In this document: positions 2,970-41,999 of the stretch, one piece after another | Layout of the letters: every line of letters begins with the position of its first letter | Numbering within the stretch: position 1 is the stretch's first letter | DNA from: Mobula hypostoma | Lineage: Eukaryota | DNA: 64,000 nucleotides | Assembly (NCBI RefSeq): GCF_963921235.1 | Contig: NC_086097.1 | Location: 86,552,001-86,616,000 of the forward strand | Direction: 5' to 3' | The notes under the pieces: generated by a model | What the model saw: the letters and a program-made list of their open reading frames with translations, nothing else | Told to the model about the DNA's origin: nothing | Database searches by the model: none | Program-made: the position numbers and the translations under genes

Positions 2970-5900
2970 GAAGTCTCTTTCAGGGATGCCTACCCTGAAG
3001 TAGTTTAAATCTTCCCTTCGCTGGGAGTTCAGTGAAACCCTCTCTCACTCTTCCCCCTCGACTCTTCGACCATGTGCTTACCCAGACCCACAACCACAGC
3101 CATGAATCCTTTCTGGGAATGTGTCTTCGCTGCCAGCTTGTACCACACACTGTCCAGATTTGTTTTCAAGCTTCTCAATTTGGACCCTCTGAGGACCCCA
3201 GATCACATTCTATTGACAGCTTCTCCCGCTGCGTTCTATACGCTACGCTTTCCGGCATGAGGAGGTAGCTGGTGTCCCTATCCCAGTCACTTCCACAAAC
3301 ACTGGTATTCTCTCTCCGCCACCTGTAATGGACCTGTACACTTCTCTATCCTCTGTGGGATCCACACTTTCAATCACCAGTCCTTTGATTTTCTCACAAC
3401 ATTCAAGGATCAGACCACAGAACCTGCTGTCTCCAACACTGGCAGGCCTGGGAGTCTCCAGACTGTTGTCCTCAACGGCTCTAATGATCCAGAGCAGATT
3501 CAAAACCCAGACTCCATCGCCATCAATGCAGGGTCCAACGGCCTTGGACACCTCCAAAGTGCCGATTGCGCAAACTCTAACTCCAGCCTTGACCTCCAGG
3601 CAGGGACTTTACACACTGGCGCTGAAACCCCGTCTCCCCTTCCCCCATCACCACTCTGCAATCTTGTGTCTCTCAGGTCCCACCGCCAGCTATAGGGTCC
3701 TCAGAACCTCCATCTTCCTCCCACCCCACCTTCCATGAACACCTCAACCCTCCTTTCTCCTCAGACACTACCAACCCTCTTACCTCCTCTGATCCCAGCT
3801 CTCATCCCCTCTCTGAGGCAGAATGTTCTGCCCTCAGTCAGGGCATCACCTTTGTTCCCCTGCACCCTCACCTCAGTGAGTTCCGCACCACCAAGATGCT
3901 GAGCTCTTCTTTCACTGCCTCGGTCCCCGAGCCTATTTCTTTGGCAGGGACTCTCCAACCCGTGCCAATGACCCCTTCTCCCATCTTCAACCCTCCTCCT
4001 CTTCCTGGTCACCCTGCCCTGGTCTTCTGCCTGCTCTGGACCTTTATATTGCCATCTGCCGACCGGACATCAACCATCTCGACTTCAGCATGCCTCTTTT
4101 CAATTCCAACCTCCGAACGCTTTGCTCTCCACTCCCTCCGCACTATTCCTAACATCATCAAACCCTCAGATAAGGGGGTGCTGATTAGTCTGGCGTACTA
4201 ACCTCTACCTTGCTGAGGCCCAGCACCAACTCTCAGGCACCTCCTCTTACTTACCCCTCGAACAGGACCCCACTAAGGAACACCAAGCCATTGTCTCCCA
4301 CACCATCACCAGCATTATCGACTCCAGGGATCTCCCATCCACTGCCACCAACCTCATGGTTCCTGCACCCCAATGGTGGCATCCGTTTGTCTCACGAGAC
4401 CTGGGCAAGGTTGTATGGAAGACCGGCAGTTGCCCATGCAGCAAGTCTCCCCTCTCCACGACACCGATGTTGTCCAAAGGAAAGGCAAGTGCCAATACAG
4501 CTTGGCACCAGTGTCATCGTAGGAGTTGCCAGAACGAGGTTGAAGGCAATGTCGGACTGCCTTAGGGACTCCAGCTCCGGATTTGTCCTCAGGGTTTACT
4601 CCTGAAGCCTTTCCCATGAGTGGGTATGGCCGTGAGGCAGCGGAGGTTTGAAATCTGCACCCCACACCTCCCATTTCTACCTCCCACCCAAAATCCACAA
4701 ACCTGCTTATCCAGGTAGACCCATCGTTTCAAGCTTGTTCCTGCCCCACTGAACTCATATCTACATATTTTGACTCTGTCTTATCCCTTCCTAGTTCAGT
4801 CACATCCTGCCTACATCTGTGACACTTCACATGCTCTGGATCTTTTCAATGATTTCTAGTTCCCTGTCCCCAAGCATGTTATTTTTACCATGGATGTCCT
4901 GTCCATATACACCAGGAAGGCCTCAAAGGTCTCTGCTTCTATTTGGACACCAAACCCAACCAGTTCCCCTCCACCACCACTCTCCACCGCTTAGCAGAAC
5001 TTGTCCTCACTCTAAATAATTTCTCCCTTGGCTCCTTCCACTTCCTTCAAACAAAAGGGGGAGCCATGGACACTCGCATGGATCCCAGCTACGCCTGCCT
5101 GTTTGTCAGCTATAAGGAACTGTTCAAAGCCTATACTGGTAACTGTCCAGCACTTTTCCTACGGTACATTGATGACCGCATTGGTGCTGCTTCCTGTACC
5201 CATATGGAACTTGTCAACTTCATCCACTTTGCCTCCAACTTCCACCCTGTCTCAAATTTACCTGGTCCATTTCGAATACCTTCCTCCCCTTTCTGAATCT
5301 CTCTGTCTCTGGAGACAGCTTATCTACTGATGTCTATTACAGACCTACAGATTCTCACAGCTACCTGGACTATACCTCCTCCCACCCTGTTACTTGTAAA
5401 AACGCCATTCCCTTCTCTCAATTCCTCCATCTCCACTGCATCTGCTCTGAGGTTTTTCCATTCCAGAATGAGGATGTCCACTTTCTTCAAAGAAAGTGGC
5501 TTCCCTTCCTTCACCATCAATGCTGCCTTCAACCACATCTCTTCCATTTCATGCATGTCTGCTCTTACCACATCCTCCCACCATCCCAGCATGGATAGGG
5601 TTCCTTTTGTCCTCACCTACAACCCACCAGCTTCTGCATCTAGCACATAATTCTCTACAACTTCCGCCACCTCCAATGGGATCCCACCACCAAGCACATC
5701 TTTCCCTCCCTCCCACTTTCTACTTTCCACGGGGATCACTCCCCAGGTGTCTCCCTTGTCCATTCGTCTCTCCCCACTGATCTTCCTCCTGGCACTTATC
5801 CTTGCAAGCAGAACAAGTGTTACACCTGCCCCTACACTTCCTCTCTCACTACAATTCAGGGCCCCAAAAAGACCTTCCAGTTGAGGCGACACTTCACCTG

Positions 5901-6520
5901 TAAGTCTGTTGGGTTCATATACCGTGTCCAGTGCTCCCAGTGTGGCCTCCTGCACATCAGTGAGACCCAACGTAGATTGGGAGACCGCTTTGCTGAGCAC
6001 CCACGCTCCATCTCCCAGAAACAGCAGGATCTTCCTGTGGCCACCCATTTTAATTCCACTTCCCATTCCGACATGCCTATCCATGCCCTCCTCCACTGTC
6101 ATGATGAAGCTACACTCTGGTAATGCCCCTCACTCTCTTTCACTATTCCCCATCCCCTTTTCCCGCTCTCACCTTATCTCCTTGCCTACCTATCGCCTCC
6201 CTCTGGTGCTCCTACCCCCTTTTCTTTCTTTCAAGGCCTCTTCTATCAGACTCCCTCTTCTCCAGTCCTGTATCTCTTTCACCAATCAACATCCCAGCTC
6301 TTTACTTCATCCCTCCCCCTCCCGGTTTCACCTATCACCTTGTATTCTCTCTCCCCTCCCCCCACTATCCCACCATTTAAATCTACTCCTCACCCTTTTC
6401 TCTCCAGACCCTCCGAGGGGTCTTGACCTGAAACATCGACTTTACTCTTTTCCATTGATGCTCCAGCATTTTGTGTCTGTTGCTTGGATTTCTAGCATCT
6501 GCAGATTTTCTCGATTGTGA
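2970..6520 (+). mobile_element. Near full-length Penelope-like element (RT + GIY-YIG), degraded
   Basis: IKPSDKG, FYLPPKIHKP, QTKGGAMDT, RYIDD (5162), RHFTCKSVGFIYRVQCSQCGLLHISETQRRLGDRFAEH, and a pyrimidine-rich 3' UTR. Confidence 0.9.
4373..4654 (-). mobile_element. Non-autonomous RTE-type short element inside the Penelope
   Basis: 10-bp TSD CTGCACCCCA (4363-4372 / 4655-4664). Its 3' half is shared with the SINE at 40785-41091. Confidence 0.75.
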
Positions 6521-7198
6521 TTAGCACTCCCAAGAATCTTCTGCACCACGAATGTCTGAATTCATTCCCATTTAGAAAATAGTTTATGCCAGTATTTCTT
6601 CTACCAAAGTGCATGACCATACACTGCATTCCACCAGCTACTTCTTTACCTTAATCTACCCACGTCCTCAGACTTCCTGCTTCCTCAGTACTATCTGTCC
6701 CTCTACCTATCTTTGTATCATCTGCAACCCTGGCCACAAAATCATCAATTCCATCATCCAGATCATTAACAAATAATGTGAAAAACACCACTAGTCACCA
6801 GAGTTTTCCATTCCAATTCTATTTTATTAGCTTAATTAGGCATCAAATCTTAACCCAAATGTGTTAGTGTGCTAGTTCCAATCACCATCTGAGTATAGTC
6901 ACTTTATAACAAAACACCATCTTCTAACTTCTTCAAGTGAGAAATCCACTAATTGTGCAAAACAGTACAATCATTGAAAATTGAACAGTTCATGAAACCA
7001 CTGCCAAAAAAATAGCGTCTTGTCAATGTATATCTCAACTTCTTTTTCACTAATTTTTTTGTGTCCAGCTCATTCTATTCGCTTTTCTTACTGGTTTAAT
7101 TTTTCACCTGCTTCTGTCCCTTTTGTATGGAACTCATGTATCTTGCAAGAGTTTAGTTCCATATCTTGGATGACTGATCAAACAGCTTTCCTCGACTG

Positions 7199-8321
7199 TG
7201 TAATGTAGAAAACTACTGTTGGATTTCACGCCTGGGGTTAGTCTAATAAATAAGTTGGCTAAATTTTGTCTGATGGTGACACACTATGATTGGCCTAAGT
7301 ACGGAACAAATGTAAGTCAAAATAATTGCTCTGGATGTGCATTTAAATTACAATTTGTGTAATTGAATGGACATATTCTGCACCATATCTCAACTTTCAA
7401 TGCTGCAAAGGTCTCCTTGCCCCATCAAAATCATAATTTTGTTTTTGAGTCAATGCCACCTGTACATAGCCCAATTAGTCTTCAATATCACTGGACTTGG
7501 CAGTAGCTAAAACAGTGCTTTGCCTCTTAGCCAAAGAGTTAAAATAATTGGCCAAAGATCAAAGTAAACAAGAGCCAGTCTTCAATTCTCAATATAGATG
7601 ACAAGCAGTCATTCGCTTTAAGTTAAAAAGCCAGCTTTGCAAATAAGTACTATCTGCAGAACACAGGCTGTTGGCTTCGTAGTACCTGGGCTAACTGGTG
7701 AAGAGGTGCAGTGTAAGACAATGGGGTATGCTTAATTTGGCTTATTTCAAACTAGACAAATCTGGCTAAGTTGTTTAGTTCAAGAAAACATGCAGACTGG
7801 ATGAATAATATCACTTGTACATCAATAGATGATCTATTAATCATTGGAATATTTGTGTACTCAACGATTCAGATTCGCAGTATTAATTGTGGGTACCTGG
7901 GATCTCTGTCTTCAGAAGTGTTTAGATCATTTGTGTAAAATGGTATTGGAAAAATACCACATATGTGTGAGGTCATTCAAGTGGCAGGAAAATAGTATAA
8001 ATTTATAGAGCAGTCATGCTTATTAGGAATGATCAAAAACATCAAGAATGAAAGAAACATGGGGTGAATTTCAATCCATTCCTCTACCTTTGATATCTGC
8101 GACAGACAACTGGTTCATCTGCAACTCATGGGTATCTCTTTTTAGCTTATAGGAACCGTACCTATGCTTTGGAAATTCTTTGTGTTTTAGCAATTGTTTG
8201 TAATCTGGAATTCCTTTACAAGATAGAAATACTCTGAAAGATTTAAATGTATTTTAAGAATGTTGTTTGGATTTAAATGTGGATCACTGCACATAAATGA
8301 ACTGCTTTTAAACTACTTTGT
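7199..8321 (+). repeat. 5' LTR of the foamy-like ERV (U5, PBS and 5' gag apparently deleted)
   Basis: Collinear anchors with the 3' LTR: tgtaatgtagaaaactactgttg vs tgtattgaaaaataaaacatgttg (7199/12612); ttgctct..tttaa..atttgtg..aatg..tattc..tatct (7326/12766); tcactggacttggcagtagctaaaac vs tcatctgacttgggcacccctaaaac (7488/14318); gtgcagtgtaa (7706/14816); taaactactttgt (8309/15295). Confidence 0.7.
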
Positions 8322-8804
8322 CAGGTGGAAGTATCTTCCTAATGAGGAGGGGATCCCACCACTCAGACGGTGGGTATTGGCAACTAAACTCATTATGGAG
8401 GATAAACAGGGAAGTGAACTAGTCTTTGAAGATTGAGTAATTACAGCATAATCTCCCTTTTGTGAGGGTACCTGTAGTTACCTATATCAGATAGGGCTTA
8501 AGGTCATGGTTTGAGTTTGGAACTTTGCAGTCAACAAACCTATACAATCACAGTTAGCGCCTGAAGTAGTCATATTATACCAAAAGTATTATTTTGGAAA
8601 GAATTATTATTTAGCAATAATCCAATTTAGAGCATGCTTGGTAAGTGCTATAAAACAGATGACATCCTGGTTTCCAGTAGTTGTGCAGGCAAATGCTGGT
8701 CGATGTTATGAATGTGTTAATTATAGGGCAGAAATATGGGATAATACCACAAATGCTCCTCAAATTGAATATGAGGAATATTTTATTCTTCAGGGACTGG
8801 AATA
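8322..8804 (+). pseudogene. gag: 3' remnant of gag with a degenerate CX2CX4H knuckle
   Basis: Near-open frame RWKYLPNEEGIPPLRRWVLATKLIMEDK...AGRCYECVNY lying between the LTR and the protease. Removing one base after CYECVNY gives G-Q, where Q (CAG) is one change from H. Confidence 0.55.
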
Positions 8805-8829
8805 ACGAAGGGATAGAACATAGAGAAGA

Positions 8830-11800
8830 ATGCAGACTAGACAGACTAAAGCCGACTGTACAACCCTGCTGTTTTGATACAGCAGATATTTCAATGCTAA
8901 GTTTGGATATTGTTCAAGGCAATAAACTAGGGGAGCAACAGGGAAAGTTAAAATTGAAGGCAAGGCATGAATGGAAGCAAAGTGGAGTGCCCATCTTATG
9001 AAGTTTCCATAAAGATATACGGAATTAAACGAACAGTAAAATTAGCTGTTTGGTCTTTACACCAGGTTTCTGCAGATTGTACTAAACTAGCACTTATATT
9101 ACGAACACTGAACGTTTCCTGTTGGATTCGTACTATAATCAAACCAACAACTGATGCAATACACCAGATGAATGAGACATACATATTCAGAAACAAGAAG
9201 ATTATCATCAGGATGAAACAATCAGAGTGAAATTGAAACATATTTTGCACAAATGTCATGATGTCCTACAACAATCTCCTAACCACTATGGAATGGTTGA
9301 TATTGAACCAACTAAATTAGGATGTAGTCCTTTCCCACGCCAGAAACAGTGGCATATTCCTGACCATAGAGGAAAGCAATCCCTACAGGAAATTGTAGAT
9401 TTCCTCTACTGACAAGCTGTTTTGAAAAAAGAACCTCCTCAATTTAACTTGCCTACGTTTGGCGTAGCAAAGTCTGCTGGACAATGGTGATCGGTCATCA
9501 ACTACATCGTCCTGAATAAACACATAGCACCTAATACGACCTAGCAACAGACATTACAACAAATGCTGCAAGGATTGATTTGTAAAAAAACTTTTTCGTG
9601 GATCTGGCCAATGGTTTCTAGTCACACCCAATTCTTGAAAGTGACAGACTTTACAGAGCATTTACAACACCCAATGGCTCACAGTATCAGTGGGTCAAAC
9701 TCCCACAAGGTTTTTGGAATAGTCCACAAATATTTATTGCAGAAGTTCATAAAATTATAACACACAGGAGCAGAATTTGGCCATTTGGCCCATCAAGACT
9801 GCTCCGCAATTTCATCATGCCTGATCTACCTTTCCTCTCAGACCCAACTTCTCCACGGATCATTCAGACTCTACAGGGAATACCAAACATTAGTGCATAT
9901 GTTGATGCTATATGCTACACAGCCACTGGACAAGCATTGAACACTGACAGAGACTTATTAAAAGGATGACAGATAGAGGTTATGTAATTAACATTTTAAA
10001 AATCGCACCTGTCATAGAAAAGTAAATTTCCTGGGTATGACAATCAGGGACATGGCTTAACCTCTCAATTTAGACAAGAAGTTGCCCAAGTAGGATATCT
10101 TAAGAACCTAAAAGCCTTATCATCAATCCTAGGCCTATTGAATTATGCTAAAGCTTTTATACCTGACTCTGCTCAATTGTCAAATCCTTTAAATGACAGA
10201 TGGACACTGAAAAACAAAAAAACTTTTGTTTTTAACCCAAAAGATTATGAGGTGCTGGAGAAATTGATGATGGACCTTCTTCTCCATGAATTGATGAAGC
10301 AAGCAATAGACCCAATAAAATCTCTTGTTCTGCAAAACACACTCTTTCATGGATCTGGCCAATGGTTTCTAGTCACACCCAATTCTTGAAAGTGACAGAC
10401 ATTACACAGCCTTTACAGCAGCCAATAATATCAGTGGACCAGACTCCGACAAGGTTTTTAAATAGTCCACAAATATTCCAAAAACCACAGCAGCCATCTG
10501 TTATGAGGGAAAAAAAACACAAGCCCCCATACATTATGCCTCATATAATTTCACCCCAATCAAATAGAAATTTCCTGCCTTAGAACAATATCTTATTATG
10601 ATATTCCATACGTATGTTGCAGTAAGAGCACTGCAGGAAAACAAACCATTATACAGAGTTAGCGGCTTTGAAAGCTGATAGGAAATTATCCACAAATGAA
10701 TGGAGAGCTACCATAACCAGTTATAAGAAATAGCAAGCACATTCACAAGACAACACTTTATAGTGGGAATACATTCCTGAGAGCTATGACTTACAATCCT
10801 TACCTATCATGAAAGATACAGAACCATCTTCTCCATGAACCGATGTAGCATGACATCTTTTACAGCACTATTCCCAAATATAGTACCATGATGGTTCAGC
10901 AAAAAAAAATCCAGAAAGACGGATTCACCCAATTATAAATATAAAATGAATTTTTTTAAAATCGGAAACTGAATTTGAACCTCATGAGTTGCAAGTGCAT
11001 CCTTTAGGGAATCATACAGCTAGCTCAGTTTGCAGAGGCTAAAGTCCTAGGATTATGACTAAAACAAGTCGATACAACAGAACCAGACTTGATATGTACT
11101 GACTCTAATTATGTTACGCATGTGGTAGAAAGAGATCTTCCCATCTGGTCAACTACTGGATGGAGAAGGCTCAGAGGTAAAGTGCTTCCACATTTATTCA
11201 TCTGGAAGAATATTTATGAATTACTAGTGACTAGACCATTAGTGCAGGTGTTACACATCCTGGGACATACTGCAGGTCTCTATGATAATAAACTAAAAGT
11301 AAACAAGCTGTCGAGATGGATGTTAATAGAGAAAAAGTGGCCAGAGTTTTGGTAGTAACTAAGTAACAAATAATAAAATAACCAGAAAGAAGTTTAGGAA
11401 TTCTCCTATGTACAACAAAACCCAATTCCAAAGGAGTTCCAACATGGTACAAATGTGAAGCTGAAGGTGAAGGTAAGATTTGCGTCTGCCACCCTAAAAA
11501 AGATAAGAAGCAAATCCCTCCTGACCATTGGCAGGAAGCACTGATTTAAGAAACACACCAAGGATTTCATTACTATCATGGTGGCAGACCAGCTATTCAT
11601 GTGAAATTAGCCATGTTATACTGGTGACCTTACATGTTGAGTGATACGTGATTCATTGCAAATAGTAAAGAATATCTGGCCTATAATCAAGGAGCAGTCA
11701 CATGACCACCTCCTACAAGACAAACAAAAACAATTGCACCAATGCATGCATGACATATTGATTATATGGAACTATTTCTAGCATCCCAAGGCAACCCAGC

Positions 11801-12559
11801 TTATCAGAAATCTAACAGATATATTCTTGTAATCATTTATGTTTGTATGGGATATATACAGTATGTGGTCAGTCTCCATGACTTCTTGTAGTGAGACCAC
11901 AACATCACAGCATTCCAGAACTCCATTGGCCCATATGCTGGTAATCCTGTCGCATTACATGGTAACCAAGGGTCTTTCTTCAGTGGTGAAAGGTTTCAGG
12001 CCATGAGTGAACAGCACTCCATGCTATTAACAACCGAGTAGCGTGGTGGAGTGAAGGAATCGAGAGATTCAGGAGGCCTGGCAAAACTAATCTACTCTAG
12101 AGGCCAAAAGTAGACAAAATTTGTCCCTGCAGTGCAACTGTCAGTAAACAAAATACCAGTTGTGAAAATATGAGTGCACAAGAATGTTACATTTCTTAAT
12201 GTACAATGTCTACTTAAATACAACACTGCTCACAAACTCAGGCCAACCAGCGCCTACACCCGAGACAATTCTCCTCAAGGAACTGACAGAGTTTGTGGGA
12301 ATTCAAGAAAAGCAAAAGAACCTGACAAGAAAATTTGGATACCATAAAAAGGAGACTGGGTCCAAGAAAAGAAATTCCATAAAAATGACCCCCAAATGGA
12401 AACCTCCCTGTCTCATTTCCCTGGTTATCAATGATAAGACTGTGGTAATTGAGATCATGAGAGGAAACAAGACTAAGTAAAACTGTCCCCATAGATTACA
12501 TCAAACTTGCCAGCAGGATCTATCCTCCCAGAACAAGTGGAACCCTTATACTAGGCTAG
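8830..12559 (+). pseudogene. pol: Foamy-type pol (PR-RT-connection-RNase H-IN) with many stops and frameshifts
   Basis: PR: FDT-ADIS (8873). RT: PRQKQWHIP..KQSLQEIVDFL, DLANGF*SHPI (9601), LPQGFWNSP, IPNISAYVDA (YVDD-derived, 9898), KNLKALSSILGLLNYAKAFIP. RNase H: YHDGSAKKNP (10884), PLGNHTAQFAE (11001, across a 4-bp duplication), ICTDSNYV..LPIW..GW. IN: KGVPTWY..GKICVCHP..IPP, HGGR..KLAMLYW*PYM, HIDYM, LHGNQGS, PKWKPP..VINDKTVVI..KTVPIDYIK. Confidence 0.92.
9761..9872 (-). mobile_element. Short CR1 3'-end insertion interrupting the ERV RT between motif B and YVDD
   Basis: Similar to the CR1 tails at 430-530 and 29790-29880. The RT reading resumes on both sides. Confidence 0.7.
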
Positions 12560-12594
12560 TAAATCGGTCCAATATGGAACTTCTTCACTCTGAC

Positions 12595-12611
12595 AAGAAC
12601 TGGGAGTGAGA
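12595..12611 (+). promoter_or_regulatory. Degenerate polypurine tract of the ERV
   Basis: AAGAACTGGGAGTGAGA immediately precedes TGTATTG (3' LTR start) and begins 36 bp after the pol stop. Confidence 0.6.
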
Positions 12612-12840
12612 TGTATTGAAAAATAAAACATGTTGAGATCAAAAAAAAACATAAAAATTCCTGTTCACTTGAGGAAGATGTCATAGATACATTGCCCAGG
12701 AATAATACACCTAAAATGCATTGTTACTTTAACTGTAAGAAAGATTTAAACTCCAGGGAGAAATGTTGCTCTCGTTATACTTTTAATATTTGTGCTTATA
12801 ATGATATTATTCAGTACTATCTTGCTTAGAGTTTGCTCTA

Positions 12841-14310
12841 TAGACTTCAGGAGGAAGAAACTAGAGGTCCATGAGCCAGTCCTCATTGGATTATCAGAGG
12901 TAGAAGGGTCAGTAACTTTAAACTCAATGGTGTTATTATTTCAGAGGACCTGTCCTGGGCCCAGCAAGTAAGTGCAATTACAAAGAAAACATGGTAGCAC
13001 TTGTATTTCCTTAGGAGTTTGTGTATATTTGAGTGTGGGAAGGGTCATTGCCTGGTTCATGGCGGGGGGGGGTAGGGTGTCTTTGGGGTTCTAATATTTT
13101 AACTGTCACTCATTCTTTGGGGGACTCTTGTGTTTTTGTGGATATTTCCAAAGAAAAGGAATTTCAGGATGTATATTGTATACATTTCTTTGATATTAAA
13201 TAGAATTATTGAACCAAAGGGGTTCACTTAACTTCATTTATCAGTCATTGTGATGTTTCCACAAATTATAGACTCAAATTCATTTCATATTCTTGATATT
13301 TATGGTTTATTTACTTATTATTACTTCTTTCTTTTTGTATTTGTACAATTTGTTGTTTTTGCACACTAGTTGTATGACTAATTCTGTTATGATTAATTAT
13401 TCTATTCTAACCATACTATCTTTTGGCCTTATTGATTATATACTTATAGATACTGATTGCAATGTTACAGCAGTAAACCCAACCTTCTTCCTCAGGCATA
13501 AATTAGACAAATGATAGGTCCCCCAGAGACACCTCCTTATATACCCTCTTGCATGAGCAGAGCATAGATGGGGCTTAATGCTCAATCCTGATTGGCTGGA
13601 TCTGAACTGCCTATTACTAATTAGCTAGTTTTGAATTGGCCTTGTTCTGATTGTTTGATTCTTTTAGGCTAAACCCTGTTTAGGAATATGTGGTGTCAGA
13701 CTGGATTTATCTCTACACTCTTAGAACGTACATGTAGACCCAGGTTTGATGAGGCCAACATCCTTAGCAAGGAAGAGAATGCCTACAAGAGAAAGATTAA
13801 GGAATCACTAGAGATGGAGCATGTGGGGTATCTAAACTTAAGTTCTAAGAGTGTCAAGATAGCTCCAATCTGGGACCACACTTACCTAATGAGGATTTGG
13901 CCTTTAAAAAAAAATCAACCAATCAGGACAATTCATACTAACCAATCAGGAATAGGCAATTCAGATCCAGCAAATCAGGATTGAGCATTAAGCTCCACCC
14001 ATGCACTGGTTCACTGAGAGGGTATATAAGGAGGTGCCCCTTAGATGGGGGTAACTTATCATTTGACTAACTTGTCTAAGGAAGATGGTTGGTTTACCAT
14101 TGAAATATTGCTATCAGTATCTGTAAGTATGTGACTGTTAATACCAAAAGATAGTATGGATAGATTTGATAACCAGTCACAAAGCTTTTATAGTCAGTAA
14201 ATTATTCTATTATTGATTTATTGAGCAAGTCTGCAAGAAAATGAATCTCAGGGTTGTATGTGGTGACATATATGTACTTTGATAATAAATTTACTTTCAA
14301 GTTTCACTTA
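12841..14310 (+). mobile_element. Rex1/Babar-type LINE fragments with nested insertions, inside the ERV 3' LTR
   Basis: Similar to 17770-18620, including the tail gaatctcagggttgtatgtggtgacatatatgtactttgataataaatttact. Confidence 0.7.
13414..14165 (+). mobile_element. Second-family Penelope 3' end with an inverted pLTR
   Basis: About 300-bp inverted arms (13414-13712 / 13857-14165) flank GIY-YIG C-terminal FDEANILSKEENAYKRKIKESLEM. Confidence 0.75.
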
Positions 14311-14876
14311 CTATGGCTCATCTGACTTGGGCACCCCTAAAACCTAATACCTCAGAACATTAGATTAAAATGTTTACTGAACAATGATGATTCTAATTTA
14401 AATATCACCAAATAGCCCTTACCACTTGGTCATATGTGAACTAACACACTGGAACTCTTGAATATTGTCTCTGGCAAAATGATTCTTCCTGCTGCATTGT
14501 AGTCCATTCAAGCTTGTAAAATATTGGATTAAAGTTTGAACAGCTTCCAAGTGATATTTTAACTCCTTGTGAGCTCACAGCATGTAAGGTATCAAGATGT
14601 CTGTATGAGTTAAACACTGTAGAATTGTTAACGTCTAATGTTTGCTGATAGCAGCTGGAGTCTTTCTTGGCCTCAGGCACCAGTAGCATAAGAAGAAAAG
14701 AGCAGAATGTATGTATCCCTGCATATCTCTCAATGTTTGTAGAACTCCTAAAGAAACTATGCTGAGTTAGTGGCATGAGAATAAAAGATGAGTTTGTCTG
14801 CCTCTGTGACTTGCTGTGCAGTGTAACACTATTTATTGAGGTGCCTTTTACTTCGTTATTGGGACTTAACCTAGAC

Positions 14877-15082
14877 CAGGGATGGCAAACCTTTTATATT
14901 CCATGCATCAATTTTGTCACGCACGAGTTCAGATGCGATTTTTTTTTCTCTTTTTTTCACGCACAAGTTCTATATTAACGCATTTTTACAAGCATTGAAT
15001 GGGGGTACAAGACTTGTATGGCGCATCTGAACTCGTGAGTGAAAAAATTGATGCATGGAATGCAAAAGGTTGGCCACCCCTG
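14877..15082. mobile_element. hAT-Charlie-type MITE
   Basis: TIRs CAGGGATGGCAAACC / GGTTGGCCACCCCTG, palindromic arms of about 60 bp, 8-bp TSD ACCTAGAC / ACGTAGAC. Confidence 0.88.
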
Positions 15083-17649
15083 ACGTAGACCAAAGATTAT
15101 GATTTGATTATGCCTGGGATGGACCCAGGGTGATTTCACAAGTCAGGATTCAGAGTTCTGCTGACAACAACAGCAACAATCAAGTGGAAACTAAGAATTG
15201 TAAGCCCTGAAATGTTTGGAAATTTTTGTAACTTTTTATCATAGTATTTTGTATGATTATTTGTGCTTTCTTTTTTATGATAATAAATTAGGCTTAAACT
15301 ACTTTGTTGTTACCTTATTACCAAATCTCCTGGATAGTCAAATTGTATGGTTTGGGTCTGATCAACCCAGCCCATTACACTGGTTGACTTAAACATTCAC
15401 ACTGATTGCATTGCAGCTGAAATGAACATAGATACATAGGAAGGAAAAAAACACTTGGGAAATGATTAATAAAACCCCAACAAAACTGATTCCAGCCCAG
15501 ATATTGAAGGTAAACTAATTGAGGAATTTCTTGACATTGATTTCTCTAGGCTTGAAGAAAAGTGTAGACATGAGAATATTGTAACACTCATGGGAATATG
15601 ACATTGAAACCATTAGACTACAACATTGTGAAATTTTTTTTTAAATAAAAAATCTTCTACATTAGATAGATATTGCATTTTCCCTTTATGGCCAACAAGT
15701 ATATAAAAACACAAAATTTTAGACATTTCCCTTTCTTCAATTATGGCCACTTTTCCACTTGATTGCTAAGTGTCAAAGATAATATGACAATGTTCTGCAT
15801 TAGTGGTTTGTATTTTAAATGATTCAACAACAGTGGATCTGGTTTTTGCAAAGGAAATTGAGATAGAAGGATGTAATGAAGCAAAAGATAAGAGAAAAAG
15901 ACAATGTTTTCCTTCCTGGTCAACTGAAGCTGCTAATTCCAATAACTGTTTTGGAGATTTTAGTACCATAGACTACCCAGATTTCATACTTGCCCTCAAT
16001 TAAACAGCTATGCTGTGGTGCAAATAATACCTTATAGCAAATTAGTACTGAACTTTTGTTTCCAATGAACTTAAAGCAGGGAAGGAAAAAAGCCTATAAT
16101 AACTTTGCTGTTGGAGACAAAATGATGATAAATTTTGGGGTTGCATTGATAACATTCTCCCCAAATAGATAATGTTACATACACAGACAAGTCTTTAATT
16201 ATTGCTGTGTGTTCAGTCACAGGCAGATAAAAAAAAACAGTACAGCACTGAACAATTTTGATTTATAAAAAAATATTAGAGTAAACCTGCCCATGCAGCC
16301 CTGCCTTTGACAGTGCTCCCTTTCATAATTGTACTGATGTTGTCATCCTATAGTTCACTCACAAGGTGAAATTTCTGATGACAAAAGTTGTTCAGACATA
16401 CTGTGGTCAATGAATCACTTGCTTTTTAAGGCTTATAAAAGGAAATGCTCCTTGGAGCAATCTGATTCTTCACCCAATATTGCATATCTCAAGACAGAAA
16501 TGAAAGCCCAGTTTTAAGGAATGATTTGTGATAGATGCAGCAAACAGTATTCTAGATAAACTTGATATTCATCAACAATGGCAAGAAGAAACTCAGTCCA
16601 ACCAAAAGAATATTTCTCTATACACTACTGGAGTAACTGAACTGGCATAATCAAATGAGCGAGGCACCTCCTTTCATAACTTACTTTTGCAGATGCATAC
16701 CAAGTCCCTGACTGGCTTAATGCTCTAGCTGAAACAATAACTAAGACCTTCCAAGCTTTTTCAAATTTAACTTCCGCAGCAGCAAATACAGTTTCTGGGA
16801 GGATTGGTACTACATTAAATTGGGTTAAAGATTTTTTTTTGCAGTTTTCCAATGGACAATTTCCCTTGTCATTGGATTTATTATTTTTATAGCACTCCTT
16901 TTGTTGAAGCATTGAAGCCTGCAAAGGATGGAAGTTTGGTGACTTCTGCTCCACTTCTAAGACTCTGCTAACACCCATACCCACCCTGCACTGCCTACAC
17001 TACACTGTCTATGTCTACTGTGCTATACCCTGCCTCATACTCACCTTTTATCTATTCCTCTGGTTTGTCTTCAAATCTGGAAAAGTAGGAGACCACCCTA
17101 ATTATGTTATCCTTGCTCCTCTCCTTTTTTTGTCCTGATCACTAATATTGTGTATGGTATGTATGTCTCCCCTCATTTTGAGGAATGTCGGGATATATAG
17201 AAGTTACTTAAGATTTTAGATGGCATGCCATATCTGTGCAAACTTCTGAGAAATAGATATGTTGTTGTATCTTTGCGATTGTACTCCAATGTTGAAGTTG
17301 AGATGAAAAAGAAATGTAGTCTGGATGTCACAAAGGACTGGGAAAAGAGAACAAGTAGCAATTTTTCTGTGAATGAATCAGCCTACCTAGCAAGCAAGTA
17401 TCAGTTAAGTTGCTGACACAATTAATAACATTTTATAGCTGCATCTGCTGCAATTGCTTGGTTTGCAAACTTTTCCACCTTCAGATGCTCCAGCGTAATA
17501 ATGCTATCATAGCAGTGTTCAGCAATGTCAAAACTTTGCCTTAGAACTATCTTAGTCAATGTGCATGCTGAAGTGCAAGCACAGTCTCTAGCATTACTGA
17601 TTCACAAAGATTCTATTTTTTTTTCTTGCACGCTTTCAATCTTTTATCA

Positions 17650-18620
17650 AAAATAGAATCGCCACTGTCATACACCGAATCAAAGGTGATGAATCAGCAG
17701 ATGGGAGGGAGATCTGACTAAGTGGTGCCATAACAACAACCTCTTACTCAATGTCAGCATGACCAAGCGGCTGACTTCAGGTGAAGTAAACCAGAGGAAC
17801 CCAGTCATTGGAAGATCAGAGGTGGAGAGGGTTAAAAAACTTTAAATTCTTTAGTGTTTTTATTCAGAGGACCTGTGCTGGTCCCAGCAAGTAAGTGCAA
17901 TGATGAAGAAAGCATGGCAGCACCTCTACTTCCTTAGGAATTTGTGGAGATTCAACATGACACCTAAAATTTTGACAAACTTCTACAGATGTGTAGTGAA
18001 GAATATACCGACTGGCTCATCACAGCCTGGTACGGAAACACCAATGCCCTTGAATGAAAATCCTACAAAAAGTAGTGGACATGACCCAGACAATCATGGG
18101 TAAATACCCCTCTGCCATTGAGCACATCAACATGAAATGCTGTCACAGGAAAGTCACATCGATCATCATGGACCTCCACCACCCAGGACATGCTCCTTTT
18201 CTCACTGCTGCAATCAAGAAGGTAGTATAGGAGCCTCAGAACTCAACTATCAGGTTCAGGAACAGTGACTAACCCTTAACCATTTGGCTCTCGAACCAAA
18301 GGGGATAACATCACTCAACTTCACTTGCTCCATCATTGAAATGTTCCCACAACCAATGGACTCACTTTCAAAGACTTTTTATCTCATGTCTTCTTTTTAT
18401 TGCTTATTTATTTATTTATTTATTTTTACTTTCTATTTGTATTTGGATAGTTTGTTCTCTTCTGCACTCAGGTTGAATGCCTAAGTCAGGGGTTATTTTG
18501 TTGACTGTTCTGGTTATTATTCTTTGGATTTATTGAGTATGCACATAAGAAAATTAATCTCAGTTGTATATGGTGGCCTATATGTACTTTGATAATAAAT
18601 TTACATTGAACTTTTGAACA
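17650..18620 (+). mobile_element. Rex1/Babar LINE, 5'-truncated
   Basis: KKAWQHLYFLRNLWRFNMTPKILTNFYRCVV and the family tail. Confidence 0.8.
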
Positions 18621-18799: not shown

Positions 18800-21700
18800 T
18801 ATGGGTGGACAAGTCGAGAGAGGATATACTTGATCTGGTATTGGGAAATGAACCTGGTCAGGTGTCAGATCTCAGTGGGAGAACATATTGGAGATGGTGA
18901 TCACAATTCTATCTCCTTTACCATAACATTGGAGAGGGATAGGAACAGACAAGTTAGGAAAGCATTTAATTGGAGTAAGGGGAAATATGAGGCTATCAGG
19001 CAAGAACTCAGAAGCATAAATTGGGAACAAATGTTCTCAGGGAAATGTACAGAAGAAATGTGGCAAATGTTCAGGGGCTATTTGTGTGGAGTTCTGCATA
19101 GGTACGTTCCAATGAGACAGGGAAAGGATGGTAGGTTATAAGAACTGTGGTGTACAAAGGCTGTTGTAAATCTAGTCAAGAAGAAGAGCTTATGAAAGGT
19201 TAAAAAAAATAGGTACTGATAGAGATAGAAACCATAGAAACTACAGCACAGAAACAGGCCTTTTGGCCCTTCTTGGCTGTGCCGAACCATTTTCTGCCTA
19301 GTCCCACTGACCTGCACACAGACCATATCCCTCCATACATCTCCCATCCATGTATCTGTCCAATTTATTCTTAAATGTTAAAAAAGAACCCGCATTTACC
19401 ACCTCATCTGGCAGCTCATTCCATACTCCCACCACTCTCTGTGTGAAGAAGCCTCCCGTAATGTTCCCTTTAAACTTTTCCCCCCTCACCCTAAACCCAT
19501 GTCCTCTGGTTTTTTTCTCCCCTTGCCTCAGTGGAAAAAGCCTGCTTGCATTCACTTTATCTATACCCATCATCTATCAAATCTCCCCTCATTCTTCTAC
19601 GCTCCAGGGAATAAAGTCCCAACCTATTCAACCTTTCTCTGTAACTGAGTTTCGCAAGTTCCGGCAACATCCTTGTAAACCTTCTCTGCACTCTTTCAAC
19701 CTTATTTATATCCTTTCTGTAATTTGGTGACCAAAACTGAACACAATACTCCAGATTCGGCCTCACCAATGCCGTATACAACCTCATCATAACATTCCAG
19801 CTCTTATACTCAATACTTTGATTAATAAAGGCCAATGTACCAAAAGCTCTCTTTACGACCCTATCTACCTGTGACACCACTTTTAGGGAATTTTGTATCT
19901 GTATTCCCAGATCCCTCTGTTCCACTGCACTCCTCAGTGCCTTACCATTAACCCTGTATGTTCTACGTTGGTTTGTCCTTCCAACATGCAATACCTCACA
20001 CTTGTCAGTATTAAACTCCATCTGCCATTTTTCAGCCCATTTTTCCAGCTGGTCCAAGTCCCTCTGCAGGCTCTGAAAACCTTCCTCACTGTCTACTACA
20101 CATCCAATCTTTGTATCAGCAGCAAACTTGCTGATCCAATTTACCACATTATCATCCAGATCATTTGATATAGATGAGAAATAACAATGGACCCAGCACT
20201 GATCCCTGTGGCACACCACTAGTCACAGGCCTTCACTCAGAGAAGCAATTCTCTACCACCACTCTCTGGCTTCCTCCATCGAGCCAATGTCTAATCCAAT
20301 TTACCACCTCTCCATGTATACCTAGCGACTGAATTTTCCTAACTAACCTCCCATGCGGGACCTTGTCAAAGGCCTTACTGAAGTCCGTGTAGACAATATC
20401 CACTGCCTTCCCTTGATCCACTTTCCTGGTAACCTCCTCGAAAAACTGCAATAGATTGGTCAAACATGACCTACCACGCACAAAGCCATGTTGACGCTCC
20501 CTAATAAGTCCCTGTCTATCCAAATGCTTGTAGATTCTGTCTCTTAGTACACCCTCCAATAACTTAACTACTACCGACATTAAACTTACAGACCTATAAT
20601 TTCCCGGATTACTTTTCAATCCTTTTTTAAACAACGGAACAACATGAGCCACTCTCCAATCCTCCGGCACCTCACCTGTAGACAGCGACATTTTAAATAT
20701 TTCTGCCAGGGCCCCTGCAATTTCAACACTAGTCTCCTTCAAGGTCCGAGGGAACACCCTGTCAGGTCCCAGGGATTTATCCACTTTAATTTTCCTCAAG
20801 ACAGCAAAGACCACCTCCTTTTCGATCTGTACAGTTTCCATGATCTCACTACTTGTTTCCCTTAATTCCATAGACTTCATGCCAGTTTCCTTAGTAAACA
20901 CAGATGCAAAAAACCTATTTAAGATCTTCCCCAATTTCCTTTGGTTCCGCACATAGCCGACCACTCTGATCTTCAAGAGGACCAATTTTATCCTTTACAA
21001 TCCTTTTGCTCTTAATATACCTGTAAAAGCTCTTTGGATTATCCTTCACTTTGACTGCCAAGGCAACCTCATATCTTCTTTAGCCCTCCTGATTTCTTCC
21101 TTAAGTATTTTCTTGCACTTCTTATACTCCTCAAGCACCTTATTTACTCCCTGCTTCCTATACACGTCATACAACTCCCTCTTCTTCTTTATCAGAGTTG
21201 CAATATCCCTTGAGAACCAAGGTACCTTATTCCTATTCACCTTGCATTTAATCCTGACAGGAACATACAAATTCTGCACTCTCAAAATTTCTGCTTTGAA
21301 GGCTTCCCACCTACCGATCACATCCTTGCCAGAGAACAACCTGTCCCAATCCACGCTTTTTAGATCCTTTCTCATTTCTTCAAATTTGGCCTTCTTCCAG
21401 TTTAGAACTTCAACCCTAGGACCAGATATATCCTTGTCCATGATCAAGTTGAAACTAATGGTGTTATGATCACTGGAACCGAAGTGCTCCCCTACACAGA
21501 CATCTGTCACTTGTCCTAACTCGTTTCCTAACAGGAGATCCAATATTGCATCCCCTCTAGTTGGTCCCTCTATATATTGATTTAGAAAACTTTCCTGAAC
21601 ACATTTTACAAACTCTAAACCATCTAGACCCCTAACAGTATGGGAGACCCAATCAATATATGGAAAATTAAAATCCCCTACCACCACAACTTTATGTTTC

Positions 21701-24684: not shown

Positions 24685-27455
24685 CAACAGTTCTAATGAT
24701 CCCAAGCAGTTTCAGAATCCAGACTCCTCCGCAATCAATGCAGGTTCCAACGACCTTGGACTCCTTCAAAGTGCCAATTGTGCAAACTTCACTCTGACTC
24801 TAGCCTTGACTGACAGCATCACCAGGCAGGGACTTTACAAGCTAGTGCTGAAACCCCGTCTCCCCTTCCCCCACCACCACTCTGCAATCCTGTGTCTCTC
24901 AGGTCCCACCGTCAGCTCTAGGGTCTTCGGAGACTCCATCTTCCTCTCACCCCACCTTCCCTGAACACTCCAACCCTCTCCTCTCCTCTGACACTACCAA
25001 CCCCCTCCACCTCCCCCCCCGATCCCAGCTCTCATCCATGTTGGGTCTTCACCATCCCCTCTGAGGCAAAATGTTCTGCCCTCAGTCAGGGCCTCATCTT
25101 TGTTCCCCCGCACCCACACTTCAGTGAATTCCACGCCCACCATGACACTGAGCTCTTCTTCCGCCACCTCCATCTCCGTGCCTACTTCTTTGGCAAGGGC
25201 TCTCCACCCCGCACCGATGATCTCTTCTCCCATCTTCAACCCTCCTCCTCCTCCTCCTGGACACCCTGCACTGGTCTTCTGCCTGCTCTGGATCTTTTCA
25301 TTGCCAACTGCCAATGGGACTTCAACCATCTAGACTTCAACACTCCTCTCTCCTATTCCAACCTCACCCCTTCCAAATGGTCTGCTCTCCACTCCATCAG
25401 CACTAATCCGAACCTCACGATCAAACCTGCAGATAAGGGAGGTGTTGTAGTAGTCTGGCATACTGACCTCTTACCTTGCTGATGTCCTGCAACAACCGTC
25501 AGACACCTCCTCTTACTTGCCCCTTGAACAGGACCCCACTAAGGAACAGCAGACCATTATCTCCCACACCATCACTGACCTTATTGACTCTGGTGATCTC
25601 CCATCCACTGCCACCAACCTCATGGTTCCCGTAACCTGCACCTCTCATTTCTACCTCCTACCCAAAATCCACAAACCTGCCTGTCCAGGTAGACCCATTG
25701 TTTCAGCTTGTTCCTGCCCCTCTGAACTCATATCCACATAACTCAATTCAGTTTTATCCCCCCCCCCAACGGTTCAGTCCCTTCCTGCCTACATCCGTGA
25801 CACGTTACACACTCTGCAGCTTTTCAATGATTTCAGGTTCCCTACCCCCCCATCATCTTATTTTACTATGTATGTCCAGTCCCTATACACCTCCATCCCC
25901 CACAAGGAAGGACTCAAAGCTCTCCATTTATTTCTGGACACCAGACCCAACCAGTTCCCTTCCACCACCACTCTACTCCATCTGACGGAATGTCCTCACT
26001 CAGTAATTTCTCCTTTGGCTCCTCCCACTTCCTTCAAACAAAAGGTGCAACCATGGGCACTCGCATGGGTCCCAGCTATGTCTGCCTTTTGTCAGCAATG
26101 TGGAACAGTCTGCATTCCAAGCCTACACTGGTATCTCTCCTCAACTTTTCCTGCGCTACATTGACACTGCTTCCTGCTTCCATGTGGAGCTCGTCAACTT
26201 CATCAACTTTGCCTCCAACTTTCACACTGCCCTCAAGTTTACCTGGACCATTTCCAACACTTCCCACCCCTTTCTTGATCTCTGACTTTAGAGAAAGCTT
26301 ATCTACTGATGTCCATTATAAACCTACTGACTCTGAAACTACCTGGACTATACCTCTTCCCACCCTGTTACTTTAAAAATGTTATCTCCTTCTCTCAATT
26401 CCTCCGTCTCCACCACATCTGCTCTCTGTAGGAGCCATTTCATTCCAGAACTAAGGAGATGTCCTCCTTCTAAGAAAGAGGCTTCCCTTCCTCCACCAAC
26501 GCTGCCCTCAACCGCATCTCTTCCCTTTCACACACATCTGCCCTCACCCCATCAGTGATAGAATTCCTCATCCTCATTTAGCACCAGACCAGCCACTGTG
26601 TCCAGCACATAATTCTCCGTAACTTCTGCAATGGGAGCCCACCACCAAGTACATCTTTCCCTCACCCCCCATGACCCAAACCTCCCCCCCCACTTTCTGC
26701 TTTCCGCGGGGATTGCTCCCTAAATTTGTCCCTCCCCACCGATCTCCCTCCTGGCACTTGTCCTTGCAAGTGGAACGAGTGCCACACCTGCTCCTACACC
26801 ACCGCTCTCAGGGTCCCAAACTGTCTTTCCAGGTGAGGCAACACTTCACCTGTGAGTCTGTTGGGTTTATCTACTGTATATGGTACTCCAAGTGTGGCCT
26901 CCTGTATAATTGGTGAGACCTAACGTAGATTGGAAGACCGCTTCATCAAGCACTACATCCACCAGAAAAAGTGGGTTCTCCTGGTGGCCACACTCAAGTT
27001 GAAGGAGCAACACCTTGTATTCTGTCTGGGTAGCCTCCAACCTGATGGCATGAACATTGCTTTCTCAAACTTCAGATAATGCACCCCCTTCACCATTCCC
27101 CATTCCCATTTCCCCCTCTCACATTATCTCCTTCCCTTCCCATTACCTCCCTCTGGTGCTCCTCCCCCTTTACTTTCTTCCATGGTTTTCAGTCCTATCC
27201 CATCAGATCCCCCTTTCTCCAGCCCTGTATCTCTTTCACCTATCAACTTCCCAGCTCTTTACTTCACCCCTACCCCTCCTGGTTTCACCTATCACCTTGT
27301 GTTTCTTTCTCTCCTCTCCCCACCTTCTTAGTCTGACTCCTCGTCTTTACTTCTCCAGCCCTGATGAAGGGTCTTGGTCTGAAACGTCAACGGTTTACTC
27401 ATTTCCATAGGTGCAGCCTGGTCTGTTGAGTTCCTCCAGTATTCTGTATGTGTCT
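24685..27455 (+). mobile_element. Penelope-like element, same family as 2970-6520
   Basis: FYLLPKIHKPACPGRPIVS, SLYTSIPH, QTKGATMGT, GIY-YIG region and 3' hammerhead. Confidence 0.9.
27356..27393 (+). ncRNA. Minimal type I hammerhead ribozyme in the Penelope 3' repeat
   Basis: cagcc-CTGATGA-agggtcttggtct-GAAAC-GTC-aacgg. Core intact, stem I degenerate. Confidence 0.65.
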
Positions 27456-27910
27456 CATATCTTTAAACATTACTACACAGTCATCCCTCATTCTCCTTTA
27501 TTCCAAGGAATAAAGATTATCCAGGTTAACCCCTCAAATCCTGACCACACCTTTGCAGTTGTTTTTTTTAAAAAACACTAACCACATCATTCCGATAATA
27601 GGGTGACCCAAACTATGTACAGTACTCTAAGTGTGGCTGCACCAATGACTTGTACAACTGCAACATAAAGTCTCATCTCCTCTACTCAATGAAGGTCAAC
27701 AAGCTAAACACCTTTTTCACTACCGTCTCCCTGTGATGCCTCTTATAATGAACTCTGCATTGTATTCCTACACCTCTTGATTCCATTGCACTCCCTGGTG
27801 ACTTCGCATTCACAGTACAAACCCTACATTGGTTTGAATTTCCAAATGTATTTTCTCATACTTATCTGTTATTGAAATAAATTTGCCACTCCTCAGCCCA
27901 CTGCCCTAAA

Positions 27911-28621
27911 TAGAAACCATAGAAACTACAGCACAAAAACAGGCCTTTTGGCCCTTCTTGGCTGTGCCGAACCATTTTCTGCCTAGTCCCACTGACCTGC
28001 ACACAGACCATATCCCTCCATACACCTCCCATCCATGTATCTGTCCAATTTATTCTTAAATGTTAAAAAAGAACCCACATTTACCACCTCGTCTGGCAGC
28101 TCATTCCATACTCCCACCACTCTCTGTGTGAAGAAGCCCCCACTAATGTTCCCTTTAAACTTTTCCCCCCTCACCCTAAACGCATGTCCTCTGGTTTTTT
28201 TTCTCCCCTTGCCTCAGTGGAAAAAGCCTGCTTGCATTCACTCTATCTATACCCATCATAATTTTATATACCTCTATCAAATCTCTCCTCATTCTTCTAC
28301 ACTCCAGGGAATAAAGTCCTAACCTATTCAACCTTTCTCTGTAACTGAGTTTCTCAAGTCCCGGCAACATCCTTGTAAACCTTCTCTGCACTCTTTCAAC
28401 CTTATTTATATCCTTCCTGTAATTTGGTGACCAAAACTGAACACAATATTCCAGATTCGGCCTCACCAATGCCTTATACAACCTCATCATAACATTCCAG
28501 CTCTTATACTCAATACTTTGATTAATAAAGGCCAATGTACCAAAAGCTCTCTTTACGACACTATCTACCTGTGACGCCACTTTTAGGGAATTTTGTATCT
28601 GTATTCCCAGATCCCTCTGTT
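27911..28621 (-). mobile_element. Young CR1 family A 3' fragment
   Basis: Nearly identical to 19226-19921. Confidence 0.92.
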
Positions 28622-28745
28622 GAGTAGAGGAGATGAGACTTTATGTTGCAGTTGTACAAGTCATTGGTGCAGCCACACTTAGAGTACTGTACATAGTTTG
28701 GGTCACCCTATTATCGGAATGATGTGGTTAGTGTTTTTTTAAAAA
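28620..28745. repeat. Inverted duplicate of 27565-27689
   Basis: Reverse complement is identical over about 120 bp except for homopolymer length. Confidence 0.92.
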
Positions 28746-35146: not shown

Positions 35147-35704
<558 letters not shown>

Positions 35705-39075: not shown

Positions 39076-39304
39076 NNNNNNNNNNNNNNNNNNNNNNNNN
39101 NNNNNNNNNNNNNNNNNNNNNNNNNNNNNNNNNNNNNNNNNNNNNNNNNNNNNNNNNNNNNNNNNNNNNNNNNNNNNNNNNNNNNNNNNNNNNNNNNNNN
39201 NNNNNNNNNNNNNNNNNNNNNNNNNNNNNNNNNNNNNNNNNNNNNNNNNNNNNNNNNNNNNNNNNNNNNNNNNNNNNNNNNNNNNNNNNNNNNNNNNNNN
39301 NNNN
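39076..39304. other. Assembly gap (N run) in MAP3K9 intron 1
   Basis: Run of n characters. Confidence 1.
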
Positions 39305-41091: not shown

Positions 41092-41999
41092 ACATATTGG
41101 TTGTTTAGCCATCTTCATTGTATGTGGTTATTCATTGATTCTATTGAGTTTCTTTGTATTTACCATGAATACCAACAAGAATGTGAATCTCAGGGTTGCA
41201 TATGGTGACATATATGGACTCTGATAATAAATCCACTTTGAACTTTAACCTATACCACCATTTGGAGCACCATCAATTCTATAACAATATTTATTTTACA
41301 TAACAATCTTAGTTTCTTGTCCCAACAAGATTAAAAATGTGTGCACGTGGTAGTTTCCTAAATTGTTACCATTACATATTCAATGTGGAATTGCTTTATA
41401 AATACCCCTTTCCTCATCCTTCGAAAATGTATCACCTCTCACTACTCAACATTAAATTTCATAGTCTGTGAGTCTGCCCATTTCATCAACGCCTAAATCA
41501 AAACTCGTCTGAAATCCATGTACCCAATATCAGACGCACTACCCTCACCAACTCTCTACTACTTCATCAAAAAGCATTTTAGGGGCAGATGTTACATCGA
41601 CAGGGAGGAAACATAATCACAGAAAAATGTGAATGCAATATTGGTGATCATAAACTGGGCCTAGGGAGCTTTGAAGTAAAGGATCTACTGAAAGTTAGGC
41701 ATTGAGCAGTAACATTTCGGATGAGTTAAAATTTACTGCGAATAGATGATGGGAAAGAATCCAAAATTCTGGAATTGTGAGGTCTAGGAGCAATAAGAAC
41801 ATTTTCAGTCACAGATGGATTGAGGCAATAGTATATACAAAAACTATCACTGAAGTATGTCATCTTGATGATCAACCTGACATGGAGACATAAAGATCAA
41901 ATAGTACATTACTTCTGTGAACTTTTGGTTTAGTCTCAGACAGTACTTGGGCATGGGATGAATTTCATGGCTTAAATGTAGACATTCTGAATTTAGCCA

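Follow-up and report, generated by a model that had tools for sequence, protein, structure and literature searches.

Within the window, a 64,000-nucleotide stretch of the Mobula hypostoma genome (contig NC_086097.1, positions 86,552,001 to 86,616,000 of the forward strand), two exons of a MAP3K9-like kinase gene lie on the minus strand and the decayed remains of a retrovirus on the plus strand. The first exon, at approximately 47273–47500, was assigned from exon motifs as the start of the SH3 domain. The second, at 35144–35704, encodes the end of the SH3 domain and the kinase N-lobe, with E-values of 2e-75 for MAP3K9 and 9e-62 for MLK4. The minus strand encodes both exons, and the window shows no kinase motif beyond them. 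The provirus therefore occupies, in antisense orientation, the intron that follows the second exon seen, which ends in HRDLKSSN; the initial annotation likewise placed it in a MAP3K9 intron.

The surrounding DNA is rich in other features. The first kinase-gene intron contains an assembly gap, a run of 229 N at 39076–39304. Two copies of a C-rich reverse transcriptase element, approximately 85% identical to each other and presumably Penelope-like, occupy 3473–6350 and 24685–27300. LINE-like pieces at 19225–19872 and 27910–28572 are 97% identical, and a 126-bp inverted pair (27564–27689 with 28620–28745) is 99% complementary; these pairs suggest a recent local duplication or inversion. By eye, open frames at 42456–44845 (minus strand) and 58363–58845 (plus strand) resemble remnants of Gypsy-type gag, protease and integrase.

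The foamy-like pol region and the nested inserts

The pol region is read on the plus strand and starts with a frameshifted segment in the position of the protease (8860–9229), assigned from this position and from a D-T-x-x motif near 8877 that we take to mark the protease. A search of this segment against PDB returned weak unrelated matches and no foamy protease. A foamy-like reverse transcriptase (RT) with stops and frameshifts follows at 9230–10330. Among solved structures, its match to foamy PR-RT (E 4e-22) was far ahead of those to Ty3 (1.4e-5) and HIV-1 (2e-3); its first portion, 9230–9496, matched foamy Pol 125–214 (E 3.5e-6), and Pfam RVT_1 was recovered at E 7.8e-7. A tether (degenerate RNase H) domain at 10409–10630 (Pfam RT_RNaseH_2, E 0.0087) and an RNase H at 11026–11292 (Pfam RNase_H, E 3.2e-5; 24.6 bits, cut-off 25.8) come next in the expected order, each scoring under its Pfam cut-off. 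The foamy-like integrase spans 11430–12510. Its 11430–12182 part matched PFV integrase at E 6e-11, the sole integrase matched at E ≤ 1, and the tail beyond 12182 is presumably integrase as well, having been assigned by eye from its resemblance. Homolog searches with the integrase and with the RT found nothing, a comparison of the locus with viral and metagenome contigs gave no match, and Rfam returned 0 matches. Judged from its sequence, the portion from RT through RNase H to integrase, at approximately 9230–12180, is genuine: the heavily decayed relic of an old foamy-like retrovirus.

Several inserts and duplications interrupt the element. A 114-bp short repeat is inserted in the RT at 9746–9859, with related copies at 436–522 and 29782–29858; in all 4 runs, contigs from the genomes compared (see below) skip it, passing directly from 9745 to 9860. 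A plus-strand segment at 10325–10477 is an internal duplicate of RT 9575–9734 (84% over 161 columns, E 4e-43; K2P 0.12). Downstream of pol, two inserts had been cut out beforehand, a LINE-like one at 12841–14310 and an inverted-repeat element at 14877–15090, and our analysis confirmed the boundaries of both. The first is a LINE-like 3′ fragment with 78–84% matches at 17773–17952, 18514–18614 and 41176–41252, itself interrupted at approximately 13361–14233, where contigs join 13343–13360 to 14231–14234. Nested in it is a palindromic element of approximately 760 bp (13406–14164) with arms at 13406–13738 and 13831–14164 (self inverted match E 3e-103; 82% identity over 321 columns, K2P 0.205). Several contigs cover this palindrome in all four runs, and it carries what we take to be CCAAT- and TATA-like motifs on both strands. 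The second insert, presumably hAT/MITE-like, consists of a small inverted repeat at 14877–15082 (self inverted match E 1e-18; K2P between arms 0.106) with a 7/8 flanking duplication.

The proposed LTR pair and the env position

The initial annotation read 7199–8321 as a 5′ LTR whose 3′ partner was made up of segment A (12612–12840), segment B (14311–14876) and segment C (15091–15379), collinear and 60–70% alike. This likeness proved no better than that of shuffled sequence. In blastn comparisons of 7000–8600 with the whole window at four settings, no partner appeared within 12.5–15.4 kb at E ≤ 1. Across four scoring schemes, the local score against 7199–8321 was equalled by 27–162 of 200 shuffles for segment A, by 36–132 of 200 for segment B and by 4–41 of 200 for segment C. 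The alignment with inserts removed and tested by shuffling, which had been proposed as a check, likewise gave no significant pair by local, chained or tiled tests: under the model of the initial annotation, with the inserts masked, the chained-anchor score was equalled by 23–64 of 150 shuffles and by 2–4 of 41 control stretches, and among 20 tile pairs between the 5′ and 3′ sides none fell below 6/100 shuffles. Compared as protein, the left and right blocks reached at best E 0.4. Shuffled sequence yielded 66–68% identity under gapped alignment; thus, the 60–70% identity seen by eye is what gapped alignment of AT-rich DNA produces by chance.

These tests had the power to find such a pair. Pairs were simulated on random sequence matched in base composition, at 60–85% identity with 1% or 3% indels and no very large deletions; they were detected in 40/40 trials at all 12 settings. 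The weakest setting gave a median score of 46.5, and no simulated pair scored 28 or less; the best observed pair scored 28, which coincides with the 95% point of the null. A check on genuine repeats came from the arms at 14877–15082, approximately 100 bp long and 70% identical, which this blastn recovered with E 1e-18.

Some signals do speak for a genuine 1.1-kb LTR pair that has decayed to 60% identity or less. Besides a terminal TG..CA heptamer and the fact that only 2–4 of the 41 real control stretches attain the chained score, they comprise a 14-nt exact match between 8308–8321 and 15294–15307 (4/200 shuffles in one scheme), a slight excess of shared 10-mers (11; the 16 control stretches have 2–9 and the reverse strand has 9), and two pieces, chosen after their seeds had been seen, that stand above shuffles. 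For 8040–8340 against 15100–15330, the score was equalled by 14/300 shuffles and 3/1262 window tiles, and for 7690–7780 against 14800–14876 it was reached by 0/300 shuffles. The 14-nt match is probably due to chance, and we read the residual signals as the tail of many comparisons. ATAAAT stands shortly before each copy of the 14-nt match, which is the sole anchor above shuffles in any scheme.

At the ends of the proposed element, TGTAATG at 7199 and CATTACA ending at 15379 are present as letters, as had been noted; between 6800–8800 and 14300–16400, there are 30 TG..CA inverted pairs of 7 bp, this one included. As for the 4-bp target site duplication (TSD), the flanks read ACTG and CTGG, an imperfect match that would require the terminal A to be counted twice, and 9 other TG..CA pairs with inverted repeats of at least 4 bp in the same two regions have perfect 4–5 bp duplications. 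A search for a tRNA-Lys primer-binding site (PBS) gave 0 matches at ≤3 mismatches, the best site in 6800–8900 having 8. GGGTG, the motif of the foamy PPT/3′ LTR border, occurs solely at 8062, 13075 and 15128, with none 3′ of the candidate env anchor described below. Nor is 15379 the end of repeated DNA, several contigs also covering 15707, 15865 and 16037. With no LTR pair, lysine PBS or TSD found anywhere, the ends of the element are undefined. From the foamy-type retroviral fossil proposed at the outset, the foamy-like RT and integrase remain, and the paired long LTRs and the 4-bp TSD fall away.

Downstream of the env anchor, at 15860–15886, a purine run (11/12) precedes TGTAATG, repeating the heptamer of 7199. 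We considered a 3′ LTR that would begin with this purine run and the TGTAATG at 15872, and dropped it, as it showed no alignment to 7199–7700 (14/100 shuffles).

The three right-hand segments are more likely the remains of env, as argued by their position after the integrase and by the two most hydrophobic stretches of the window. Among 1656 21-residue hydropathy peaks in the six frames of the window, ranks 1 and 2 fall at 12765 in segment A and at 15223 in segment C, both on the plus strand. Segment A, approximately 100 bp after the integrase, would accordingly hold the beginning of env, its N-terminal part being hydrophobic at 12765–12827; segment B, lying between the two hydrophobic stretches, would be a remnant of the ectodomain; and segment C, by its hydropathy, would contain the membrane anchor (15223–15285) and tail, with the LINE-like fragment inserted in env between A and B. 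The env-position frames of segment A found no homolog in Pfam and weak unrelated matches only in PDB; segment B had no homolog in Pfam, nor in PDB for the one frame searched. We infer that what was taken for the 3′ LTR more likely represents a gutted env, roughly half of which is left as approximately 350 codons. A bioRxiv paper on envelopes, which from its description concerns gamma-type Env, was set aside as a comparison.

The left-hand side was assessed with contigs from other genomes, matched to the locus in 4 of 24 runs. Among the matches listed, all 32 contig rows were used for comparison, except that 5 were treated as paralogs and kept apart on account of their greater divergence; the 80% cut-off hides older paralogs, and no contig spans the whole locus. 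Bin depths were not taken as copy number, since 14448–14774 averages 523 in run X5, yet position 14504 has 9. In runs X5, X9 and X11, positions 7157, 7212 and 7242 were covered by one contig each, as in the flank, and most listed pol positions by 4–29, all of these being contig counts rather than copy numbers. In organisms B, C and E, one contig runs continuously from the flank through the 7199–7600 region. This first part of the claimed 5′ LTR, which has no partner within the window, is low-copy DNA without LTR evidence, possibly host intron.

The notion of a true LTR pair, then, has to contend with the power simulations and the 67% identity of shuffled sequence, with a heptamer that is 1 of 30 and an imperfect TSD, with hydrophobic stretches inside segments A and C, and with a single contig at 7212 and 7242, whereas pol positions mostly have 4–29. 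It would, moreover, leave approximately 540 bp for the PBS, leader and gag, and no space for env. We consider such a pair very improbable. The match of 7199–8321 to the right-hand segments is an alignment artefact in which a 5′ region is set against the probable env.

The gag-position region and a ubiquitin-like stretch

Beyond the low-copy part, up to 6 contigs cover 7648–7679 and up to 12 cover 7730, and several contigs start at 7648–7730. The plus-strand region from 7650 to 8860 is repeated in the genomes compared, lies in the gag position and carries a decayed frame from approximately 8230 into the protease position. Over the 217 codons of 8230–8880, 6 stops interrupt this frame, fewer than the 16.6 of shuffles (P 0.0035), and the 31 codons up to 8322 are free of them; for the 7201–8229 frame, the signal is weak (15 stops in 343 codons, P 0.07). 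Since it continues past 8321 towards pol with few stops, the end proposed for the LTR falls within decayed coding sequence at the gag position. Neither of the gag-position frames, 8230–8880 and 7201–8880, found a homolog, and a fold prediction for 8230–8880 was uninformative (pLDDT 32.8). We infer a gag identity and a single origin for the left block.

Within this block, on the plus strand, 8204–8406 may contain a diverged tandem ubiquitin-like sequence, in which the end of one unit is followed by the start of the next in the exact 76-residue register, with an EGIPP piece in another frame. Translated and ungapped, 8204–8341 is identical to ubiquitin residues 46–76 then 1–15 at 17 of 46 positions; none of 1500 shuffles and none of 316 other tiles attained its score of 55, and 7 of 1276 tiles attained that of the EGIPP piece. 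In a PDB search, the frame from 7640 matched polyubiquitin with a per-domain E of 15 when untrimmed, whole-sequence E-values being inflated by repeats. Trimmed to the match, which was chosen post hoc from 10 PDB searches, it gave di-ubiquitin at E 1e-4 to 5e-4. Pfam ubiquitin (PF00240) reached E 0.084 with 13.1 bits against a cut-off of 25.4, and a ubiquitin DNA profile built from 91 viral genes reached E 4.3 at 8336–8361. Under a neutral-decay codon model, the 46 codons scored −14 and −2 bits, and these negative scores rule out a decayed ubiquitin pseudogene. An ISG15-like reading of 8204–8300 was rejected after finding no PDB match at E ≤ 10.

Set beside linear polyubiquitin or di-ubiquitin (PDB 6NJD, 2W9N), the stretch is thus alike in its identities across the unit junction, its exact register and the nearby EGIPP. 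It differs in that the C-terminal LRGG is absent at the unit junction, three stops are present, a stretch is missing, the frame changes before EGIPP, the Pfam score falls under the cut-off and the divergence is too great for neutral decay. We regard a protein-level diverged ubiquitin-like tandem as a doubtful reading of 8204–8406, the other being chance.

The same stretch bears on a different view of the left block, in which approximately 7650–8450 would be a separate piece: either what is left of a second element that abuts pol, or captured host cDNA, possibly from a gene of ubiquitin-like type. The di-ubiquitin-like register at 8204–8341 together with EGIPP fits this view, as does an A/T skew that is near 0 at 7200–8800 but mostly positive in pol. 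However, the stop-poor frame continues into the protease position; the ubiquitin-like frame has 3 stops in its 46 codons and no LRGG terminus, and its score for neutral decay from ubiquitin is negative; and the ubiquitin match came from 1 of 10 PDB searches and was trimmed afterwards. A separate origin therefore appears unlikely, and we keep the left block as the 5′ region of the provirus. It is conceivable, if speculative, that a foamy-like family carried a captured host ubiquitin or ubiquitin-like tandem at its gag position, kept at the protein level, in an insertion common to several lineages of a host group that evolves slowly. Such a putative domain might have replaced Gag ubiquitination in budding or served as a decoy. 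If the signal were true, it would represent an unusual host-gene capture by a foamy-like virus; in the literature searched, as title listings, no case of host ubiquitin gene capture by a foamy-like virus was found.

A shared locus, its age and its known relatives

Relative to the window, contigs differed at 69/4048 bases in organism B, 311/3706 in C, 228/2892 in D and 370/4356 in E. Single contigs in C and E run from 6800 to 7954. Contigs bridge the junctions between env and the LINE-like fragment in D (12525–12893) and, from 14271 onward, in C and E. In E, the passage from the LINE into the palindrome is bridged as well, and in D so is the RT duplication. The 114-bp repeat in the RT is missing from other contigs. 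The locus with its nested inserts is therefore common to three other organisms that are 8–9% diverged, in contigs that look orthologous. The initial annotation had proposed looking for either the orthologous insertion or an empty site: orthologous-looking contigs were found in three other organisms, and no empty-site joint (7198–15380) was present among the 15 joints listed of 4007. In a small, selected sample, orthologous-looking pol pieces within 9081–12550 differed by 5.3–8.5% in C, D and E, and other pieces by 6.0–11.2%.

Paralogous pol pieces differed at 238/1407 bases, a corrected distance of 0.19 that is a lower bound, and the family is approximately twice as old as the split of A from C, D and E. 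The internal clocks all stand at 0.1–0.2, so the LTRs of this copy should be approximately 80% alike and unmistakable. LTR divergence is unavailable as a clock because there is no pair, and the LTR-based dating of a very old integration, as first proposed, cannot be had from this locus. The integration is nonetheless old, as orthology indicates; LTR divergence as evidence for its age, and a number of years, did not hold. Likewise, a minimum-age calibration at a conserved gene would have to come from orthology rather than from LTRs: the locus lies in such a gene and is shared with its nested inserts, and it would provide a rate-free minimum age once the dates of the species splits are known.

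Published rates spread widely. At 0.5e-9 per site per year, the rate assumed in PMC10699275, the shared locus would be approximately 83–90 Myr old; with the two rates given in PMC4422223, it would be approximately 200 Myr (2.2e-10) or 20 Myr (the mammalian 2.2e-9). The measured shark rate reported in PMC10587355, 7e-10, is per generation. On published assumed rates, the shared locus may thus be approximately 20–200 Myr old, with no figure in years established, and it may or may not rival the 104–110 Myr of ERV-L.

The account that we favor, and consider probable, is that of one foamy-like (clade III type) provirus consisting of a 5′ region, pol and a partial env, with its LTRs lost or eroded; it joins four observations, namely the foamy-like pol, the absence of an LTR pair, the inserts and the shared locus. 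A foamy-like retrovirus would have integrated antisense into an intron of the MAP3K9-like gene in the germ line of an ancestor common to the source organism and at least three others, become fixed and then decayed, presumably neutrally. What survived would be the gag-position 5′ region (approximately 7650–8860), pol (8860–12510) and about half of env (12.6–15.3 kb minus the inserts). After integration, the provirus would have gained the short repeat in the RT, the partial RT duplication, the LINE fragment with its nested palindrome and the small inverted-repeat element, and its LTRs would have been lost or eroded past recognition as a pair.

The same anatomy could belong to a lokiretrovirus-like sister lineage instead of foamy-like endogenous retroviruses (ERVs) proper. 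According to PMC7947760, lokiretroviruses also carry a tether and an RNase H, the latter grouping with foamy viruses, and a foamy virus would be the best PDB match either way, as no lokiretrovirus reference was seen in PDB. Yet the integrase here matched PFV only, and that paper reports an independently replaced integrase in lokiretroviruses and in its abstract names no cartilaginous fish host; in addition, the broken frames gave no PF00523 (paramyxovirus F) or SMC match at E ≤ 1. We judge this placement quite improbable and return to the foamy-like one.

The closest comparison is with the foamy-like ERVs (FLERVs) of fish, shark and amphibians, as outlined in PMC5512871 and PMC5210030. As in those elements, the RT and integrase are closest to foamy viruses, pol has downstream of it a putative env region that is hydrophobic near both its N- and C-terminal ends, and stops, frameshifts and nested transposons abound, many FLERV fragments being without LTRs. 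Unlike them, the window element shows no paired LTRs, 4-nt TSD or lysine PBS. It retains approximately 350 env codons, against the 718-aa Env of PpERV-1 with its N-terminal and C-terminal membrane segments (PMC5210030), and its internal clocks far exceed the LTR distances of 0.002–0.05 given for FLERVs (PMC5512871, PMC5210030). The missing LTRs, TSD and lysine PBS were likely lost by decay, and we file the element as a foamy-like remnant rather than a proven FLERV member.

It also resembles, by description, the clade III ERVs of cartilaginous fishes such as ERV-Spuma.0-Sca (PMC10699275) in its foamy-related RT; those were dated by LTR pairs, to at most approximately 36 Myr for catshark, whereas the window locus can be dated by orthology only. 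Foamy-related remnants are already common in cartilaginous fishes, with 2843 clade III RT loci in 6 genomes according to the account in PMC11089739, and in that setting the element, an old foamy-like remnant, is unexceptional, though its orthologous locus is usable. In this respect, it parallels the ERV-L orthologue of placental mammals, described in PMC3758187 as 104–110 Myr old: both are old class III remnants dated by cross-species orthology and shared nested inserts, and they differ in that the age of the window locus is not established in years.
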